Part shown: positions 7,815-25,601 of the stretch, one piece after another
How the letters are laid out: the number at the start of each line of letters is the position of its first letter
How positions within the stretch are numbered: the first letter of the stretch is position 1
NCBI RefSeq assembly: GCF_025370835.1
Contig: NZ_JAMXFE010000013.1
Strand: one strand, 5' to 3'
Origin: Laspinema palackyanum D2b
Lineage (GTDB): Bacteria > Cyanobacteriota > Cyanobacteriia > Cyanobacteriales > Laspinemataceae
Length of the DNA stretch: 28,155 nt
Program-made: the position numbers and the translations under genes
Notes under the pieces: model-generated
Seen by the model: only the letters and a program-made list of their open reading frames with translations
The model's database searches: none
Told to the model about the DNA's origin: nothing

Positions 7815-7865
7815 AACTGATACAGTCGCCCACCCCGGGAATCAAACCCGTTACAATTATAGATC

Positions 7866-7937
7866 TCTTGCAAAATACTACAGAGATCCCCCCAACCCCC
7901 CTTAATAAGGGGGGCTTTTTAGAATTGTCCAAGAGGG
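7866..7937. repeat. Palindromic dispersed repeat, copy 1 of 2 (R3). It has inverted ends CTCTTGCA.../...TGCAAGAG and a central C6-AA-C6-TTAATAA-G6 core.
   Basis: About 70 bp align with 25428..25499 with few mismatches. The ends are inverted repeats, which makes it MITE-like. Confidence 0.7.
7897..7921 (+). terminator. Rho-independent terminator (CCCCCC-TTAATAA-GGGGGG followed by CTTTTT) ending the operon at 1..7814.
   Basis: A 6-bp G/C stem is followed directly by a T-run, and it sits 80 nt after the lipoprotein stop. It is embedded in repeat R3. Confidence 0.6.
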
Positions 7938-7968
7938 GTATTATCCTCAACTTTAGGAGAACCAAACT

Positions 7969-8986: not shown

Positions 8987-10342
8987 ATGCGTCAACTTTT
9001 ATTAAAGGTGTCAATTGGGATGCTCGTCCTCATCTTGAGTGCGTGTGGTGGTGAACCGGAGACTCCGGAAGTCGTCGCCCCCGTCGAGCCATCTCCCCCA
9101 GCAGCGGAGACTCCACCGGAGTCCCCAGAAGCCGGAGAACAACCCGAATCCCCGGAATTTGAAAAACCTCTGGTGCCTCAGCGCCCGGATCCCACATCCA
9201 TTGGGAATTTAATTCCGCCAACCAGTCCAGATGAGCGAGTCCGGCAACTGGACCAGCAAAGGGCCCGACAGGCTCAGGAAAATCCCTTCGGGATCCTCGA
9301 TGTCCAGCCGGTGCCGGTCACTCCTGCACCGGGCGCAGCACCAGCAACTCCTAGAGTTCCGGAATTTCCAGGCCGTGCGGTTCCTGGTCTTCCGGAATTG
9401 CCGGTGGCGATCGGTCCACAATTACCCCCAGGTCAAGCAGTCGCCCAAGCTCAACCCTTTCAACCCTTCCCAGGACCAGGAGCAGGACCAGGAGCAGGAG
9501 CAGGACCAGGAGCAGGACCCGGAGCAGGACCAGGAGCAGGACCAGGACCAGGAGCAGGACCAGGAGCAGGCCGAGGAAATGGAACGGGACCGGGAGCCAG
9601 ACCGGGACCAGGGGGAGGGACTGGAAATGGAACGGGCCCGGGAGCCAGACCCGGAACGCCCGGTCCTCAAGGACCACAAATTCCCGACCTGGTTGGTCAA
9701 GGGGTTCCCTCCCTTCCCGATTTGCCGTTGGGAATTGGCCCAGAACAGCTACCTCCCAGACCGCGACCCCCCGCACAACAAGCGGCGGCGGGTCCACCGG
9801 CTCCCCCTCAACCCCCAACGCTTCCACCTTTAGTGGCGCGAGGGGTCCCAGGTCTTCCGGAACTGCCCCTGGGAATTGGTCCAGAACAACTGCCTCCGGT
9901 GGTCGCCCAGGCCCCTGCGGGTCCCCCTGCTCCGCCATCCCTTCCGCCTTTAGTGGCGCGAGGGGTCCCAGGTCTTCCGGAACTGCCCGTGGGAATTGGT
10001 CCAGAACAGCTTCCCCCTCCACCCCCACCGCCGGTTCCACCACCGCCACCTTCTACGGATTTAGCCCAAGGCACGGAAGTGACCGGGGTGATTCGAGCGG
10101 GGGGTCAAGTGCAAATTATTGTTAAGGCTCCCAATGAGGCCACTTCGCGCTATGTGAAGGTAGGCGATCGCATTGCTCTAGGGGAAGTGCTGGTTAAAGA
10201 GGTGCAAAATTTAGATTCCGCTGACCCGATTGTGATTTTGGAGCAAAATGGCGTTGAGGTCAGTAAAGCTCTGGGAGAACAAGTACCCCCAGAGGCTACT
10301 CCGGGTGGGGTTAACTTGGCTAATGCGGCTTTAGGACGTTAG
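8987..10342 (+). CDS. Proline-rich repetitive lipoprotein (451 aa) with a ~90-aa C-terminal beta domain, possibly PilP/GspC-HR-like.
   Basis: The N-terminus MRQLLLKVSIGMLVLILSACGG carries lipobox LSA-C. It has a (GPGAGA)n tract and four copies of GVPGLPELP(L/V)GIGPEQLPP. The C-terminus reads TGVIRAGGQVQIIVKAPNEATSRYVKVGDRIALGEVLVKEV...VILEQNGVEV. Confidence 0.7.
   Translation: MRQLLLKVSIGMLVLILSACGGEPETPEVVAPVEPSPPAAETPPESPEAGEQPESPEFEKPLVPQRPDPTSIGNLIPPTSPDERVRQLDQQRARQAQENPFGILDVQPVPVTPAPGAAPATPRVPEFPGRAVPGLPELPVAIGPQLPPGQAVAQAQPFQPFPGPGAGPGAGAGPGAGPGAGPGAGPGPGAGPGAGRGNGTGPGARPGPGGGTGNGTGPGARPGTPGPQGPQIPDLVGQGVPSLPDLPLGIGPEQLPPRPRPPAQQAAAGPPAPPQPPTLPPLVARGVPGLPELPLGIGPEQLPPVVAQAPAGPPAPPSLPPLVARGVPGLPELPVGIGPEQLPPPPPPPVPPPPPSTDLAQGTEVTGVIRAGGQVQIIVKAPNEATSRYVKVGDRIALGEVLVKEVQNLDSADPIVILEQNGVEVSKALGEQVPPEATPGGVNLANAALGR
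9470..9660 (+). repeat. In-frame hexa/dodecanucleotide simple repeat (CCAGGAGCAGGA)n, followed by two ~48-bp repeats. It encodes GPGAGA and GNGTGPGARPG tracts.
   Basis: Direct inspection of the sequence. Every unit is a multiple of 3 nt. Confidence 0.8.
9821..10020 (+). repeat. Near-identical 120-bp tandem duplication inside the proline-rich gene.
   Basis: 9821-9900 and 9941-10020 are about 90% identical. Both encode LPPLVARGVPGLPELP(L/V)GIGPEQLPP. Confidence 0.8.
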
Positions 10343-11771: not shown

Positions 11772-12053
11772 TGTCCCATCTCCAATTGTCTATATGCTAT
11801 GGATTGAATCCCTCAGTCTGGGGTCACTCTCCCTGGGTCTTGCCCTGGAGCAATATCCCAAAGTGATTGTGCTGTAAACGTTTTGCCTAGATTACAGTCC
11901 TCAAATTCTCCAAAACGGTTGATCTTTACCCTACCTGTAGGGGAAGGCTGAGATATTCCCCCGCTAGATATGGGGGTGGAAAACTTAAAGGTTTTCTTAA
12001 TCCTGCTGGAATCCTTTTAGGCTATATTCTAATCGTATATACTGATTGGAGAA

Positions 12054-12614
12054 ATGTCAATGTTTGATGACAAAAAACAATTTCACCCCGGTCAGAAGGT
12101 CGTCTGTCGCACGGACCCCCAACAGTCCGACTGGTATGAGTGTCAGGTTTTAGAGATTGCGGAGGTCTGTGAAACCGATGAAGAGTGCTACATTAGGACC
12201 ACCTGCAACCGAGTTTTAGGGACGGGAGAGATAGAGGCAGTTGGGTCACCGAGTAAGCGAGGGCATCACCCGAACTCCAAGGCGAATTTGAAGAAAGGGC
12301 CCAAGAGTCGCAAAAAAAACCGAGTCCGTAAGTTGTTTTCCCTGGCCCCGGAAACGGTGGAATGGTTGCAAGACCAACCGATTCCAGCATCCCAGGCGAT
12401 CGATAAGTTGGTGGAACTGGCCCTGGCAACCTCGGCGAGTTGTACAGAACTGCCCCAGGTGGGGTCTAAGGTGGAAATTTTAGAGGGTCCCAAAGCAGGT
12501 CGGATGGGACGGGTCCGCAAAGTAGGGGTCCAGGTGTGGATTGAGGAACTCCCTGGCGATCGCCCGGTGGAACTGTTACCCTCTTATCCTCCTTCGAGTT
12601 TGAAAGAATGTTAG
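12054..12614 (+). CDS. Hypothetical protein of 186 aa. It has a basic patch followed by a possible ribbon-helix-helix core (RKLFSLAPETVEWL...ASQAIDKLVELAL), flanked by two small KOW/Tudor-like beta segments.
   Basis: ORF with an ATG start. The motif reading is inference from the amino-acid pattern only. Confidence 0.5.
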   Translation: MSMFDDKKQFHPGQKVVCRTDPQQSDWYECQVLEIAEVCETDEECYIRTTCNRVLGTGEIEAVGSPSKRGHHPNSKANLKKGPKSRKKNRVRKLFSLAPETVEWLQDQPIPASQAIDKLVELALATSASCTELPQVGSKVEILEGPKAGRMGRVRKVGVQVWIEELPGDRPVELLPSYPPSSLKEC

Positions 12615-12632
12615 AAGATGATTGGGGTCCCC

Positions 12633-12904
12633 GTTTGTAGTAACGCCTTCAGGCGTTCTTAATTCAAGGGGATAACGAATGAATTCGTTACTACGAACAG
12701 GGGGGGATTTTGTATTCCAAGTTTGTAGTAACGACTTCAGTCGTTCTTAATTTACGGGGATAACGAATGAATTCGTTACTACGAACTCAGGTAATTTCCC
12801 CGTTTGTAGTAACGACTTTAGTCGTTCTTAATTCACGGAGAATAACGAATGAATTCGTTACTACGAACAGGAAGAAGATAACGCCTGAAGGCGTTACTAC
12901 GAAC
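12633..12904. mobile_element. Tandem array of three 66-bp MITE-like units, at 12633-12698, 12721-12786 and 12802-12868, plus an inverted solo end at 12880-12904. The terminal inverted repeats are GTTTGTAGTAAC/GTTACTAC(G/A)AAC. Each unit carries two AACGNN-TGAA/TTCA-NNCGTT hairpins.
   Basis: Direct repeats are visible with 22- and 15-nt spacers. The unit ends are reverse complements of each other. The array fills the convergent intergenic gap between the 12054 gene and the oxidoreductase. Confidence 0.8.
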
Positions 12905-12915
12905 TTTTTCTTTGT

Positions 12916-14076
12916 TTAACTGCGGGCTAGATAGTCATCCAAATTGGGGACCGTGACCCAGGTGCCGGTTTCGTGGGATTCGTGGGTGAGGTCCATGAGG
13001 AGTTGAGAATAGACACCCTCGCGTAAGGAAGGGGCGATCGCCTGTTTTGCTTCAATCCCTCGGACCCAATTATCCACCACGCGAATAAAGGGGGCAATGC
13101 GTCCGTCTGGGTAGGTTTTAGAAAACTCCAGACCGTTGGGAATCGTCAATTCTGATAACGATTCCCCTGCCGGTGCACCCAACAATTTAAACCCATGTAC
13201 ATAATCTTTCTGATTGTCACTGCCGAGGACTAAGGTGCCGCGATCGCCATACACTTCCACCCAATGTCCTCGTCCTTGGTAAGTTGCTGAACTCAAACTC
13301 ACTTGGATGGGAGTTCCATCAACCAATTCCAACATCAGCAAACAAGTATCATCCGCATCCACAGGTTTCAGTTGTCCCCCTGCTTTGGGATCCGGACGTT
13401 CGGTGACTGCGGTACTCAGGGAGGCACACAAGCGTTTGACTGGTCCAAATAACCAGGAAATATAATCAAAACAATGAGACCCGATCGCCCCTAAAGCACC
13501 ACCGCCTTGTTGTTTTTGAGAGTACCAATTCCAAGGCCGACTCGCATCAGCGCGAGAGGAGACTAACCAATCAATTTTAATTAAACGGTTTTGTCCAGAG
13601 TATCCATCATCTAACAATTCTTTAAACCTTTGCCATGCTGGAACAAAACGAAATTCAAAATCCATTGCGGTGACCACACCGTTAGCATTAGCAATTCGAT
13701 AGAGTTCTTTTGCTTCCGATGCCGATAGAGTGGTGGGTTTTTCCAGTAATAAATGCTTGCCCGCTTCTAACAAAGGTTTTGCCATTTCATAATGTAAGAA
13801 AGGGGGGGTAGACAGACTCACGGCCTGAACTTCGGGCATTTTGGCGATATCGGCGATCGCATCGGTTGCCAAGGGGATATGATGAGTCGCTGCGATCGCC
13901 TCCGCCTGATCAATATCCCGATGATAAACGGCGATCGGTTCAGTCTGCGGATATTCTTTCAATCCCGGAATATGCACTTTCTGTCCAAACCCCGTCCCCA
14001 CAATAGCAACACCAATCGGTCCCGGTGCATAATTAGGCCCCGTAGGATAAGAGGAGGCAGTTGATAAGTTGGTCAT
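12916..14076 (-). CDS. Gfo/Idh/MocA-family NAD(P)-dependent oxidoreductase, 386 aa.
   Basis: It has an N-terminal Rossmann motif IGVAIVGTGFGQKVHIPGL. The downstream EKP segment (LLLEKPTTLSASEAKEL) and overall pattern fit the family. Confidence 0.85.
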   Translation of the reverse strand: MTNLSTASSYPTGPNYAPGPIGVAIVGTGFGQKVHIPGLKEYPQTEPIAVYHRDIDQAEAIAATHHIPLATDAIADIAKMPEVQAVSLSTPPFLHYEMAKPLLEAGKHLLLEKPTTLSASEAKELYRIANANGVVTAMDFEFRFVPAWQRFKELLDDGYSGQNRLIKIDWLVSSRADASRPWNWYSQKQQGGGALGAIGSHCFDYISWLFGPVKRLCASLSTAVTERPDPKAGGQLKPVDADDTCLLMLELVDGTPIQVSLSSATYQGRGHWVEVYGDRGTLVLGSDNQKDYVHGFKLLGAPAGESLSELTIPNGLEFSKTYPDGRIAPFIRVVDNWVRGIEAKQAIAPSLREGVYSQLLMDLTHESHETGTWVTVPNLDDYLARS

Positions 14077-14132
14077 TTGTTGTTTGTCCTTTGTTGTTGG
14101 TCATTGGTGAGGAGACGAATGATGGGAGAGGG

Positions 14133-14189
14133 AACGACTGAAGTCGTTACTACGAACATAAGAGAACGACTGAAGTCGTTACTACAAAC
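14133..14189. repeat. Two solo hairpin-plus-TIR fragments, AACGACTGAAGTCGTTACTAC(G/A)AAC, at 14133-14157 and 14165-14189. They belong to the same MITE family as 12633..12904.
   Basis: The sequence is identical to the MITE right end. They sit in the oxidoreductase 5' region, about 60 nt upstream of its ATG. Confidence 0.75.
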
Positions 14190-14241
14190 ATCTCCCCCAT
14201 CCTCCCCATCTCCCCCATCCTCCCCATCTCCCAATTCTCCC
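14190..14241 (-). repeat. G-run simple repeat on the minus strand (GGGGAGATGGGGGAGGATGG...), with G-quadruplex potential. It lies in the oxidoreductase 5' UTR/promoter, just 3' of gshB.
   Basis: There are five or more runs of 4-5 G separated by 4-5 nt on the minus strand (CATCTCCCC/CATCCTCCCC on the plus strand). Confidence 0.6.
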
Positions 14242-15219
14242 CTATCTCTGCGCTACAAAACTCTCCACCCAGTCAATCACTTGATGCCCTAGGCGTTCAT
14301 CATTGGGAAGGTATTTATCAATTTCCCGAATCCCTGTGGGACTGGTGACATTGACTTCGGTTAAATAGCCTCCAATCACATCTAGGCCGACGAAATAGAG
14401 GCCATCTTCTCGGAGTTTCGGACCGACTTCAGCGCAGATTTGTCGTTCGCGATCGGTGATTTCTGTTTTGACGGCGAGACCGCCGACGGCCATATTCCCG
14501 CGAAATTCACTCCCGCTGGGAACCCGATTGACTGCGCCGATGGGTTCGCCATTGAGGAGGATAATGCGTTTATCTCCTTGTTTGGCTTCCGGGAGATAGG
14601 TTTGGACCATCACGGGTTCTTTGCCTTGTTTGGTACTAATTTCAATCAGGGAATTGAAGTTTTTATCTTCGGGGTCTAGGAATAAAATGCCTTCCCCAGC
14701 TTTTCCCCCTAATGGTTTGAGAACCGCTGCGCCTTTTCGGTCTAAAAAATCGCGAATAACGGCTTTACTTTGACTGACGATGGTTTCAGGAATGACCGAG
14801 GTAAATTGGAGGGCATACATTTTTTCATTGGCCGATCGCAGTCCGTTTGGGGAGTTGACGACGAGGGTTTTATCGGGGTCGATGTAATCGAGAATGTAGG
14901 TGGCGTAAAGATAGGGAATGGTAACGGGAGGGTCGGTTCGCATGAAGACGACATCCATTGCTTCGAGAGGATGGGAACCGTCCGGTTGGATTTGGTACCA
15001 GGGGTTTGCCGCTATCCAGCGATCGCCTGCGCGTTCGATGGGTTTGAGGGTCACTCGGTCGAGAATTGCCCAAGCTTTGCCATTCACGACGCTGAGTTGA
15101 TGCGCCTCAGTTATCCAAACCTCATGTCCTTTCGCTTGGGCGGATTCCATCAGCGCGACGCTGGTATCGTGGGTGGGATCTAGTTTTTGGATCGGATCGA
15201 TGATGAAGGCAAATTTCAC
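14242..15219 (-). CDS. gshB: Glutathione synthetase (prokaryotic ATP-grasp GshB), 325 aa.
   Basis: The N-terminus MKFAFIIDPIQKLDPTHDTS and the ATP-grasp motifs are visible. The length matches bacterial GshB. Confidence 0.9.
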   Translation of the reverse strand: MKFAFIIDPIQKLDPTHDTSVALMESAQAKGHEVWITEAHQLSVVNGKAWAILDRVTLKPIERAGDRWIAANPWYQIQPDGSHPLEAMDVVFMRTDPPVTIPYLYATYILDYIDPDKTLVVNSPNGLRSANEKMYALQFTSVIPETIVSQSKAVIRDFLDRKGAAVLKPLGGKAGEGILFLDPEDKNFNSLIEISTKQGKEPVMVQTYLPEAKQGDKRIILLNGEPIGAVNRVPSGSEFRGNMAVGGLAVKTEITDRERQICAEVGPKLREDGLYFVGLDVIGGYLTEVNVTSPTGIREIDKYLPNDERLGHQVIDWVESFVAQR

Positions 15220-18932: not shown

Positions 18933-19195
18933 CTGACCCCGACGATTGATATAAACACAAACCGAATCCTTGATTTCGGTACTAATCGCCCCCAGACGCT
19001 GGGCAAATTCTGAGGTGGTAATCGCATCTACGGGAAGTTTTTGGTGGTAGAGGCGGTCAAGTTGCTTAAGCTGACTGGATTTAAGTCCTTGTAGCTGTCC
19101 GTATATCGTTTCGATAGGCGTATTGACCAGGAAACTGGCCCTCCGAACTCTTTATCTCTTTATTTTATCGTGAGTCAAAGGGATGTTAGAGAGTC

Positions 19196-19252
19196 AGGGG
19201 GTTTAGCTGTTTTATAAGGGCGCTGGATGATTGAAGGGGGGAATGGAGAGAG
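19196..19252. repeat. Copy A of a ~56-bp direct repeat (R2): AGGGGGTTTAGCTGTTTTA(T)AAGGGCG(C/G)TGGATGATT(G/C)AAGGGG..GAATGGAGAGAG.
   Basis: It aligns with 20175..20230 with about five differences. Confidence 0.7.
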
Positions 19253-19455
19253 GGGGATGGGAGTATGAGAGGCGAGGCGATGGTCAAACATCCTGGGGGT
19301 TATTGCCACTTTTAGAGAACCCTATCTTTTAAAATGGATGATTCATGAGAAGTTGAGATTTTTTCAGCCCTTTACTGAAACCATTGAACTGCTAAAAATT
19401 AATTGATTTTATGTTGATTTTAGGTGTGTATTCGTATTCACGCGATCAATCCCGG

Positions 19456-19740
19456 TTAGGGATGCTCGTGATAGATTCCTGCACGACTGACGGCATAATC
19501 GCTTAGGGTGGGGACATCTGGCCCCAGAGAATCTGTCAATTCATCCGCTAACGGATTGGCGATCGCCTCAAATTCATCCTCCTGTTGAATGGGGTTCGGT
19601 GAGGGTTGTAGCAGTGCCTGTACCGTGGGTGCAAAAACCTCAGCCAACAGTTGCTCAAGGGCGATCGCATCCCCACTCGCGATCCTTTCTCGGCATTTTG
19701 CCTCAACTTCCGGGGACAAGTTCAAGGTAATCCTAATCAT
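19456..19740 (-). CDS. Small hypothetical protein of 94 aa. The N-terminus is ribbon-helix-helix/ParD-antitoxin-like. It is an orphan, with no toxin partner ORF adjacent.
   Basis: MIRITLNLSPEVEAKCRERIASGDAIALEQLLAEV fits a beta-strand then helix-helix pattern. The C-terminus is acidic. No ORF follows downstream before 19256. Confidence 0.45.
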   Translation of the reverse strand: MIRITLNLSPEVEAKCRERIASGDAIALEQLLAEVFAPTVQALLQPSPNPIQQEDEFEAIANPLADELTDSLGPDVPTLSDYAVSRAGIYHEHP

Positions 19741-20174
19741 CGGTTTTCCTCTAAGATTTCGGTCTTTCTTGATGTTAAATTGCTCTTGGCTTGAAAGTTA
19801 AGTTTTATAGGGTGAGTCAATGTAATGGCTGTTTAGCACTGCTAGATCGCTCATCTTGGGTAATTGTGATAGGACGGAGGCGATCGCCTTTCTAGTTTAA
19901 CTCCCCCCTTGCGCGATCGCCGCTTCAAATTCTGCCAATGCCTGAGAGGTCCCCACTTACCAAAGGCGTTCGACTACCCCAGGAATAATTTCCCAGATCG
20001 CCTGATCTAGAAAAATCGGACTATTCTCAGCGGTGACATACTCTCACTCTTGTAATAGATAGAGGGGTCCCTGGGAGTGATTATACACTCAAACTTCTCG
20101 GCATTCAATCCCTTTATAGGCTTCGGGGGTTGTTTTAGAGGTAACATCGATTTCTATTATCAAATCCGAAAGTT

Positions 20175-20230
20175 AGGGGGTTTAGCTGTTTTAAAGGGCG
20201 GTGGATGATTCAAGGGGAGAATGGAGAGAG
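20175..20230. repeat. Copy B of direct repeat R2.
   Basis: See 19196..19252. The two copies bracket a ~0.98-kb segment that contains the antitoxin-like gene. Confidence 0.7.
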
Positions 20231-20742
20231 ATTGAGGGGAGGAACCCGGTTTCTCTACTCAATCTGAGCATCCTCTCCCTCACTCCCCTGAAATAGGTTT
20301 CGCCAAACCCGCCTTTTCCCAGTTTTTTTCAAGATATGGTAGCGTCCGCGCAGGGTTATGCCCAACATGGGTCTCGCACCAGGGTGATGTTATTTTATTG
20401 TGCCACAATTGCGCCAATTTGGGGTAATCGTGACAGGGCTGAATCTGTGACAGGAGGCAATTGGCTGCTGAAGCGCCTGTTACGGGAGGCAGAGGGTTCC
20501 ATCGGGGGTGACAAAAGCTACAGCTTTTGTCAAGAGGATGCTGGGATTCAAAGCCCAATTTGTGGTTAGATTAAAATAGGGCGATCGGGCAGTCTGTTCA
20601 TAGGGTTGTTAGATTGTAACTTCCGATAGGGCTGATAAGGCATCGGGCTTATAAAAGCCACTGTCAGGACTTCAGTCCTTTCAGCAGTTCATTCTCATAA
20701 CCTCTAGGCCTTTTGTATCCCCTGTAATGTGCTTTCAAATCG

Positions 20743-21948: not shown

Positions 21949-21973
21949 AACGACTGAAGTCGTTACTACGAAC
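21949..21973. repeat. Solo MITE end AACGACTGAAGTCGTTACTACGAAC. It overlaps the last three codons and the stop of the Cry-DASH gene.
   Basis: Identical to the 14133 copy. The CDS stop codon at 21966-21968 lies inside the element. Confidence 0.75.
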
Positions 21974-23432: not shown

Positions 23433-23459
23433 GGGTTGTATATAAGAGTGACAACAAAC

Positions 23460-23579
23460 GTTTGTAGTGACTCCTTCAGGAGTCATCCGGATGCAACCCC
23501 TGAAGGGGTTACTACAAACGTTTGTAGTGACTCCTTCAGGAGTCATCCGGATGCAACCCCTGAAGGGGTTACTACAAAC
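23460..23579. mobile_element. Two tandem 60-bp MITE-like units, GTTTGTAGTGAC-TCCTTCAGGAGTCATCCGGATGCAACCCCTGAAGGGG-TTACTACAAAC. The TIRs are the same as at 12633 and the core is different. They lie 27 nt upstream of the Cry-DASH start, open in-frame, and each carries an ATG.
   Basis: 23460-23519 and 23520-23579 are identical. The period of 60 nt equals 20 codons. Each unit translates on the gene strand as MTPEGVTTNVC..., in frame with the Cry-DASH CDS. Confidence 0.8.
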
Positions 23580-23697
23580 GTTCCATCCTTTTCTAACGAA
23601 ACGCTAGAGGAATAGGGGCGGGTAATTGTATATTGATACAAAAAAAGGCAGTTAATTAAAACTGCCTTGACTGTAACAGACTGAAATGATGGATAAC

Positions 23698-25281: not shown

Positions 25282-25427
25282 AGATCGCTATCAAAATTCA
25301 TCAAAAATACTAAATCCGGTCGTTAGTTAAAAGGCTTTTGCTCTGACGCCGCGCAGGCGGGCTTTGTCCGTATAGCCCCACCCTTGACGGGTGCGGGTTT
25401 TTATCCAACCGGATTGAGTAGGCCGAC

Positions 25428-25499
25428 CTCTTGCACAATTCCGGAGAGATCCCCCCAACCCCCCTTAAAAAGGGGGGCTTAAGAGAATTCTGCAAGAAG
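25428..25499. repeat. Palindromic dispersed repeat R3, copy 2, in the ndhF-ndhD spacer.
   Basis: It aligns with 7866..7937. The core is GAGATCCCCCCAACCCCCCTTAAAAAGGGGGGCTT. Confidence 0.7.
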
Positions 25500-25601
25500 T
25501 CTAGTATAGAAAACTCACCCGTCACACTACAGAAGCCAGAATTAACTCCGAGGCAAGGATGCTGGAATTCTGGCTTCTGCTTGGGCGACAGATGAATTGG
25601 G

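Follow-up and report, generated by a model that had tools for sequence, protein, structure and literature searches.

A probable cluster of GTAG-tagged repetitive extragenic palindromes downstream of mocA in Laspinema palackyanum D2b and its relatives

Introduction

A gap between two convergent genes in the cyanobacterium Laspinema palackyanum D2b (positions 12633-12904 of a 28,155-nt stretch of contig NZ_JAMXFE010000013.1, referred to here as the window) is filled by an array of short hairpin-forming repeats, which raises the question of what kind of element these repeats are and how the array came about. A preliminary description of the window, made from the sequence alone, took them to be a tandem array of miniature inverted-repeat transposable elements (MITEs). 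The analysis presented here indicates instead that the array is very probably formed by clustered repetitive extragenic palindromes (REPs) that bear a GTAG tag, with doublets resembling REPINs (REP doublets that form hairpins), belonging to a family associated with subclass 2.8 of RAYTs (REP-associated tyrosine transposases).

Elements of this kind are already known, as REPs, bacterial interspersed mosaic elements (BIMEs), REPIN-RAYT systems, the cyanobacterial GTAG families and subclass 2.8 itself. The array had also been called unusual, but BIME-like clusters of REPs are standard for the class (PMC3733652), and only the long head-to-tail arrays described below are mildly unusual. No description of the Laspinema stem variant or of where it occurs seems to exist in the searchable literature, in which the module sequence gave only chance matches to primers.

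Organisation of the repeats in the window

The array is flanked by a 186-aa open reading frame (ORF; 12054-12614, + strand) and the gene of a Gfo/Idh/MocA oxidoreductase (mocA; 12916-14076, - strand). It consists of three inverted dimers, with their GTAG tails facing outward, and one solo 25-nt module. Read on the tag-bearing strand, the 25-nt module is GTTY-GTAG-T followed by a 6-nt stem arm, TTCA (once TTTA) and the complementary arm (single-strand sequence GTTCGTAGTAACGACTTCAGTCGTT, with the opening written GTTCGTAGTAACGAC...). One half of a dimer reads GTTTGTAGT-AACGNN-TTCA/TTTA-NNCGTT, and the other half reads AACGNN-TGAA-NNCGTT-ACTACGAAC. The features, labelled according to the REP reading, are as follows.

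12633..12904, unstranded: REP cluster (BIME-like) of 7 modules, filling the convergent gap
12633..12698, + strand: REP dimer 1 (66 nt), head-head, inner loop 16 nt, DNA fold -13.6 kcal/mol, z = -5.05; modules at 12633-12657 (+), stem AACGCC/GGCGTT, and 12674-12698 (-), stem AACGAA/TTCGTT
12699..12720, unstranded: linker between dimers 1 and 2 (22 nt), part of a tandemly duplicated unit
12721..12786, + strand: REP dimer 2 (66 nt), DNA fold -17.3 kcal/mol, z = -7.2; modules at 12721-12745 (+), stem AACGAC, and 12762-12786 (-), stem AACGAA
12787..12801, unstranded: linker tcaggtaatttcccc (15 nt), three copies of which are found in the orthologous D2a array
12802..12868, + strand: REP dimer 3 (67 nt), DNA fold -16.4 kcal/mol, z = -5.2; modules at 12802-12826 (+), stem AACGAC, loop TTTA, and 12844-12868 (-), stem AACGAA
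12880..12904, - strand: solo REP module, stem AACGCC, 11 nt past dimer 3

The inner loops of the dimers span 16-17 nt and the linkers 22, 15 and 11 nt. The outermost modules (12633-12657 and 12880-12904) are complementary at 24 of 25 positions and together bracket the array. Tandem Repeats Finder (TRF), with which tandem repeats were called, gives a period of 88 with 2.8 copies and 84% matches for 12633-12871. Folding of the whole gap as RNA gives z = -11 for the + strand and z = -12.8 for the - strand. The hairpin array filling a convergent gap had been recognised correctly in the preliminary description, as had the two stem-loops per unit and the inverted solo end, which correspond to the six paired modules and the module at 12880-12904. 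Its three units of 66 bp apply to the first two dimers, the third being one nucleotide longer.

Seven further modules were located at three other places in the window for which the same termini had been reported, giving 14 modules at four repeat sites within 28 kb. All four sites are intergenic, the solo module at 21949 being a partial exception.

14133-14157 and 14165-14189, - strand: two head-to-tail REP modules between gshB and mocA, directly adjoining a tandem repeat of the 9-nt unit CATCTCCCC
21949..21973, - strand: solo REP module, the GTTCGTAG tail of which overlaps the end of the photolyase gene
23448-23459: degenerate extra tail beside the dimers that follow
23460-23519 and 23520-23579, + strand: two abutting REP dimers of 60 nt each, 100% identical, DNA fold -17 kcal/mol, z = -5.5

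The GTTCGTAG tail of the solo module (21966-21973) forms the final two photolyase codons and the TAG stop, an overlap that is kept in strains D2a (locus L203:2088-2112) and D2c (locus L204:2406-2430). The stems of the dimers at 23460-23579 are self-complementary and different (GACTCC/GGAGTC and AACCCC/GGGGTT). These dimers are found 28 nt upstream of the probable start of the photolyase gene (phr) and downstream of a terminator-like hairpin of ndhD, and owing to this position they may sit in the phr promoter or 5' untranslated region. The ndhD hairpin (23636-23672) consists of GGCAGTTTTAATTAACTGCC followed by T7 on the minus strand; it is of canonical terminator-like form and is conserved in D2a and D2c. 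The 12-mer GTTTGTAGTAAC (allowing up to 2 mismatches) occurs 16 times in the window where 1.2 occurrences are expected, a number reached in 0 of 100 shuffles. It had been taken for a terminal inverted repeat (TIR), but is made up of the 5' GTAG tail and the first stem bases of the 25-nt REP.

As MITEs, these repeats would be non-autonomous deletion derivatives of an insertion sequence (IS) with TIRs, moved in trans by a DDE element or one linked to IS200/IS605-TnpB and arrayed by repeated insertion. Units of 60-67 nt with inverted ends that fold as long hairpins (z = -5 to -7) would be in keeping with this, as would the dispersal and polymorphism of the family (see below), but the repeating unit is the lone 25-nt module, of which solo and head-to-tail copies are common (21949, 14133 and 14165 in the window), and linkers are duplicated together with modules. 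Target-site duplications (TSDs) were looked for, and the flanks of all window sites are devoid of direct duplications; the architecture of TIR plus TSD is missing. Furthermore, no IS with such ends was identified in the window or the fetched loci, in which only RAYT genes are flanked by modules, and the GTAG tag, covarying stem and RAYT linkage together are the signature of a REP. The MITE identity given in the preliminary description is therefore considered very improbable.

The probability that the locus is a degenerate or miniature array of CRISPR type is close to nil, as had also been concluded earlier. Its palindromic repeats are regularly spaced, with periods of 31-36 nt in relatives, but the "spacers" are only 7-22 nt long and near-identical to each other, both module orientations occur in one array and the modules are dispersed over many loci. 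A scan of the window proteins gave neither cas genes or domains nor a transposase. No tRNA was identified in the window and Rfam returned 0 matches anywhere in it at gathering score, setting the repeats apart from known structured RNA genes. CRISPR, tRNA and riboswitch readings are ruled out on anatomy.

Conservation of the hairpin by stem covariation

In all 14 window modules the GTAGT tag is followed by a perfect stem of 6 bp with a loop of 4 nt (TTCA or TTTA). Across 170 modules of the Laspinema group, GTAGT is present in 152, and GTTC or GTTT precedes in 144. A DNA-pattern scan (one genome per species; pattern GTAGTAACGNNTTCANNCGTT; at least 120 blocks) left the two inner stem dinucleotides free, and among the matches listed these were complementary in 9 of 9 window modules, 119 of 121 Laspinema-group modules and 94 of 99 non-cyanobacterial modules, the chance expectation being 1/16. 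The last of these figures shows that the non-cyanobacterial modules are not chance matches.

When modules were selected by the unpaired tail and loop only, and thus blind to pairing, 1.58 Mb of fetched DNA yielded 246 modules, of which 220 pair at six of six positions and 25 at five of six. There are 41 distinct stem pairs in this set, one common pair being shared by 148 modules. Compensatory changes are found at each of the six stem pairs (52 distinct sequences), and G-U pairs are present among the stems. Paired cells amount to 94.2%, compared with 66% in shuffles and 17-67% in slid registers, and the covariation score of 0.739 (versus 0.198) was equalled by 0 of 500 shuffles. The preliminary description had distinguished two subfamilies, the copies at 23460 having a different core. 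Sub-families do exist, but the stem covariation shows these two to be stem variants of a single hairpin design.

Association of the modules with RAYT genes

Among the matches listed in the pattern scan, six blocks (L010, L090, L094, L101, L103 and L105) encode a protein of ~200 aa with an NHYH (HUH) motif and the tyrosine motif NYIHYNPVKHG. Together with L206, L210 and L211, nine RAYT loci were fetched, all of them from other genomes. At eight of the nine, the gene has family modules on either side at distances of no more than 84 nt. For the five RAYT genes of Chloroflexota (L010, L094, L101, L103, L105) this distance is within 27 nt on both sides, and the exact window 21-mer GTAGTAACGACTTCAGTCGTT is found within 27 nt of the gene in L103, L105 and L010; altogether, six of the nine loci have this 21-mer nearby. 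At the cyanobacterial locus L090, one module is located 27 nt upstream of the RAYT gene. Downstream, the closest module (L090:3422-3442) and the 3' end of the ORF overlap. Three further RAYT loci, reached via homologues, keep the tail GTTCGTAGT and the TTYA loop with stems that are different yet complementary; at one of these, a head-to-tail array with a 32-nt period directly follows the gene.

Against NCBIfam NF047646, "REP-associated tyrosine transposase" (cutoff 80), the protein reaches 91.5 bits, and it has a weak match, below threshold, to Pfam Y1_Tnp. A tblastn search matched it to E. coli rayT (31.5% identity, E = 9e-6). Its homologues number in the thousands, and the NCBI label REP-associated tyrosine transposase is applied in many filamentous cyanobacteria. 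The features of the protein (NHYH, W[YH], YIHYNP, ~199 aa, a proline-rich N-terminus and an occasional REP insertion) fit those of subclass 2.8 (PMC6006769); on these sequence grounds the clade found beside the modules is identified as TnpA_REP subclass 2.8. This subclass has been described as cyanobacterial with relatives elsewhere in nr (PMC6006769), and its REPs have been published as GTAGT + stem + TTYA + stem (PMC6006769, Additional file 2), a class that the window repeats fit exactly. The earlier suggestion of an IS200/IS605 TnpB-type cognate was right as to a family of single-strand Y1 HUH transposases; however, the candidate is a relative of TnpA (RAYT) and not TnpB. The retention of one 21-nt module beside RAYTs that are ~44-50% identical across phyla would mean that this RAYT clade constrains its substrate tightly.

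The Oculatellaceae RAYT gene of L090 contains a 22-codon in-frame insertion just past the HUH motif, which consists of two inverted REP modules (L090:3034-3094). The extra length of a 241-aa RAYT cluster (Leptolyngbya O-77, Leptothermofonsia and others) matches this insertion. Some members of subclass 2.8 have been described with a REP insertion (PMC6006769).

Variation between strains

The MocA protein of the window is 100% identical to that of Laspinema sp. D1/D2b, 99% to L. palackyanum D2a, 96.9% to Oscillatoria acuminata PCC 6304 and D2c, and ~95% to L. olomoucense and Oscillatoria sp. HE19RPO, and the window is thus judged to be L. palackyanum-like. Five relatives were compared at the orthologous region (D2a, D2c, PCC 6304, HE19RPO and D3b, the last being L. 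olomoucense), making six genomes with the window. The accessions of these relatives are GCA_025370845.1 for D2a, GCA_025370875.1 for D2c, CP003607 for PCC 6304, GCA_024220515.1 for HE19RPO and GCA_025370785.1 for D3b.

The gap downstream of mocA has identical start and end anchors in all six genomes. It contains 7 modules in the window, 12 in D2a, 5 in D2c, 2 in PCC 6304 and 13 in HE19RPO; in D3b there are 2 besides decayed copies. Extra copies take the form of a module with a repeated 10-nt linker (35-nt period) or of a pair with a repeated 15-nt linker (~82-nt period). The spacers had been thought unique, and within the window they are single-copy, but the D2a array has three copies of the 15-nt linker, and in D2a and HE19RPO linkers of 10 nt are repeated 3 to 9 times. 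With the same anchors, from 2 to 13 modules and linkers repeated alongside them, the array resembles in its behaviour a hypervariable minisatellite that goes back to an old, seeding REP insertion. The site in PCC 6304 consists of one pair only, with GCC stems on both arms; this pair and the near-complementary GCC modules at the outer ends of the window array suggest an old single pair that was later expanded internally.

The other sites also vary. The gshB-mocA gap contains 2 modules in the window, 3 in D2a, 4 in D2c and 1 each in PCC 6304, HE19RPO and D3b. The dimers at 23460-23579 are missing from the orthologous ndhD-phr gap of D2a and D2c, and their stem sub-family is found at a different locus in D2c. 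The presence/absence polymorphism proposed as a check in the preliminary description was thus observed. Given this hypervariability among Laspinema strains whose flanking protein is 95-100% identical, the arrays could serve as strain-typing markers of the variable-number tandem repeat (VNTR) kind, and they are a likely cause of breaks in short-read assemblies.

At the spot occupied by the REP dimers in the window, the ndhD-phr gap of D2a (L203:430-620) contains an unrelated insert of ~190 nt with internal inverted repeats (GTGACTTGGCTCTGCC...), and D2c has neither; this intergenic spot appears to be an insertion hot spot. The mocA-downstream gap of PCC 6304 also holds a second REP family (L202:11250-11330), a GTAG-tagged palindrome pair GTAGGGGCGCAATGCTTGCGCCCC / complement.

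Genomic distribution and position bias

The family is not unique to this locus: at least 10 assemblies of the Laspinema group contain it, at numerous loci. Its modules are extragenic (182 of 188 in the Laspinema group) and are biased towards gene 3' ends: at Laspinema-group loci, 20 of 42 convergent gaps bear modules compared with 3 of 34 divergent gaps (Fisher p = 3e-4). Modules in co-directional gaps favour neither strand with respect to transcription (31 sense, 26 antisense). Adjacent module pairs at these loci comprise 68 head-to-tail, 17 head-to-head and 12 tail-to-tail pairs.

As a negative control, the loci of 80 mocA orthologues from other cyanobacteria (~560 kb; metagenome mocA orthologues all at most 72% identical) were searched and no family modules were found around them. 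Many of these 80 loci keep grx-gshB-mocA tightly packed. The exact 21-nt module GTAGTAACGACTTCAGTCGTT recurs, among the matches listed, in many metagenome-assembled genomes of Anaerolineae/Chloroflexota, Blastocatellia, Zixibacteria and Poribacteria. Five singleton exact modules on IMG/VR contigs, with no RAYT nearby, are uninformative, and a plasmid collection contained neither a cyanobacterial RAYT nor a copy of the array.

The marked excess of modules in convergent gaps and their scarcity in divergent ones could also be explained if the repeats were host-selected RNA elements, kept as bidirectional terminators or as a block to 3'-exonucleases, with their mobile origin being incidental. Such roles have been credited to REPs (PMC3733652), the stems contain G-U pairs, and four of the seven terminator-like matches given by a lax scan of 12000-14400 are REP modules followed by T/C-rich tails. 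These tails, however, contain no true T-run and are not canonical U-tracts, the lack of strand preference in co-directional gaps speaks against such a role, and the orthologous gaps of 80 other cyanobacteria do without modules. A swing from 2 to 13 copies at the same site in close strains is hard to reconcile with a tuned function, and purifying selection against promoter disruption would explain the position bias equally well. Selection of this kind is therefore regarded as distinctly unlikely to account for the arrays. The natural series of 2 to 13 modules is nonetheless suited to testing the effect of REP arrays on mRNA 3' ends.

Proposed origin of the arrays

It is proposed that a single-copy Y1 HUH transposase would recognise the hairpin together with the 5' GTAG guide on single-stranded DNA. 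E. coli TnpA_REP is described as binding and cleaving single-stranded REPs at GTAG (PMC6006769; PMC3733652). By cutting and rejoining at the GTAG hairpin, the RAYT would seed modules in intergenic DNA, mostly at gene 3' ends. A seeded array would then grow or shrink by tandem duplication of module + linker units, and replication slippage or unequal recombination between the hairpin-prone direct repeats would lead to strain-specific copy numbers. Any effect on the host, such as hairpins at mRNA 3' ends or weak termination, would be secondary and is putative. Repeated linkers and exact duplicates point to the duplication step. Mobilisation by a RAYT in this genome is inferred, as no Laspinema RAYT was found and PCC 6304 is missing from the published table; it follows what is established for RAYT/TnpA_REP (PMC3733652, PMC3116915, PMC6006769). 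Slippage is likewise a suggested mechanism of array growth.

Several observations weigh against the interpretation of the array as a RAYT-associated REP cluster. A tblastn search of the window and of ~400 kb of Laspinema-group DNA, covering ~5% of any one genome, found no RAYT, the 20 RAYT clusters and four RAYT contigs checked were from other cyanobacteria or other phyla and none from Laspinema, and the published REP table (PMC6006769) does not list O. acuminata PCC 6304; the cognate enzyme of the Laspinema lineage is unproven, and may be located elsewhere in the genome or have been lost. At the level of the hairpins, the stability of one solo hairpin does not exceed that of its shuffles (z = -0.9), and the arms of the window dimers carry unlike stems (GAC or GCC versus GAA), leaving the long REPIN hairpin imperfect. 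Head-to-tail pairs prevail here, whereas most GTAG families are reported to contain few of them (PMC3733652). Finally, a clean empty site was not found, as the ndhD-phr gap differs among the three strains beyond the REP insert.

A rival reading is that of relic REPs that have become a pure minisatellite, their seeding being old, the working RAYT gone from Laspinema and the variation due to slippage or recombination alone. RAYTs went unseen in every Laspinema-group sequence examined, as PCC 6304 did in the published RAYT-REP table; the array sites are common to the six genomes, mainly differing in copy number between identical anchors; and REPtrons can be deleted (Di Nocera et al., PMC3733652). 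The RAYT search, however, covered only the small fraction of each genome given above, the dimers at 23460-23579 are strain-specific, with the same sub-family elsewhere in D2c, and the near-identity of modules across loci, as seen in the one stem pair of 148 of 246, argues for recent spread or homogenisation. A relic of this type is considered possible but unlikely, and a REP cluster of the subclass 2.8-associated family remains the preferred interpretation.

Within the interpretation as a REP cluster, the long head-to-tail arrays (up to at least 13 modules, 31-36-nt period) could, in place of passive slippage, result from a subclass 2.8 RAYT that repeatedly inserts beside an existing module, every REP providing the target for its successor, or from RAYT-independent amplification after loss of the enzyme. 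The arrays differ between near-identical strains, and the 21-nt module occurs in Cyanobacteria, Chloroflexota, Acidobacteriota and Zixibacteria. Such an origin is deemed improbable; if true, either route would represent a mode of REP propagation not described for enterobacterial or Pseudomonas systems.

Genetic setting and other repeats

The gene content of the window is that of an ordinary cyanobacterial chromosome, with ndhF, ndhD, photolyase, signal peptidase, an HflX-like GTPase, grx, gshB and the Gfo/Idh/MocA oxidoreductase, and GCGATCGC is abundant across it. Upstream of grx in PCC 6304, a gene for a group II intron reverse transcriptase is inserted (L202:6297-8054).

A second dispersed repeat, 83 nt in length, is found at 7862-7944 and 25425-25507 (81% identical to each other; 91% identity to L. 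olomoucense L069:4665-4744). It comprises a CCCCCC-TTAAWAA-GGGGGG hairpin with the inverted ends GAYCTCTTGCA / TGCAAGAG, and looks, from its sequence, more like a true MITE than the REP array does.

Two short tandem repeats are located near mocA. The 9-nt repeat CATCTCCCC (14189-14248; ~6.8 copies), which abuts a REP module, is reminiscent of the cyanobacterial STRR-type short tandem repeats; D2c has none and HE19RPO has ~5 copies. A 14-nt repeat, GTTGGTCATTTGTT (14068-14105; 2.7 copies), is situated just upstream of the mocA start and overlaps it; D3b has a different run, of GGTCATT type, at this place.

Two further repeat regions were noted. The ORF at 8987-10342 (451 aa, no Pfam match) contains ~24 CCAGGA hexamers and three 100-nt repeats (9417-10017), and corresponds to a Pro/Gly/Ala-rich repeat protein of 417-463 aa across orthologous loci. 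A 75-nt direct repeat (19189-19263 / 20168-20241; 83-87% identical, 979 nt apart) brackets a small ORF (19456-19740); in place of this region, D2c, D3b and PCC 6304 have Uma2-family genes.

Comparison with known systems

Bacterial MITEs, which are IS-derived elements of 70-300 bp with TIRs of 15-30 bp and TSDs, resemble the window repeats in that examples such as Nezha in cyanobacteria, RUP and Correia/NEMIS are small, non-coding, dispersed, hairpin-forming and intergenic. The window repeats display none of the traits of size, TIR, TSD and IS derivation, and their correct annotation would be REP/REPIN (RAYT-type) and not MITE or unknown. The ends of IS200/IS605 elements (IS608, ISDra2) share with them sub-terminal DNA hairpins, read as single strands by a Y1 HUH enzyme, and the lack of a target-site duplication. 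In contrast to these elements, the repeat here has no internal transposase or tnpB and is a non-autonomous, high-copy unit of 25 nt.

The E. coli REP/BIME-RayT (YafM) and Pseudomonas REPIN-RAYT systems likewise consist of extragenic palindromes, inverted hairpin doublets and clusters, with a single-copy Y1 HUH transposase flanked by its own REPs (PMC3116915, PMC5581495), an arrangement seen here in other genomes; the match to E. coli rayT at the protein level is distant yet detectable. They differ in their RAYTs, which are of subclass 2.2 or 2.5 and not 2.8. The hairpin here is shorter and simpler, with its 6-bp stem, 4-nt loop and no bulge, and the dimers are hetero-pairs of unlike stems.

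The GTAG REP superfamily, including cyanobacterial GTAG-12, -15 and -16 (Di Nocera et al. 2013, PMC3733652), was compared by description. It shares the GTAG tail and short stem-loop, sub-families arising by complementary stem changes, occasional overlap with gene ends, and an arrangement as singletons, head-to-head and tail-to-tail dimers and clusters that reiterate dimers with flanking DNA. The difference lies in the head-to-tail arrangement, rare there in most families and predominant here.

The closest likeness is to the REPs of subclass 2.8, for example those of A. variabilis (GTAGTGAGGACTTYAGTCCTC) and Microcoleus PCC 7113 (GTAGTTCTCGCTTTAGCGAGA) (Quentin et al. 2018, PMC6006769). The architecture is identical, with the GTAGT tag, a stem of 5-7 bp, a TTYA loop and the complementary stem. 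Differences are found in the window stems AACGAC, AACGAA and AACGCC and in the host, Laspinema / O. acuminata, neither stems nor host being in the published table, as well as in the long head-to-tail arrays and in the frequency of the window 21-mer in Anaerolineae and other phyla.

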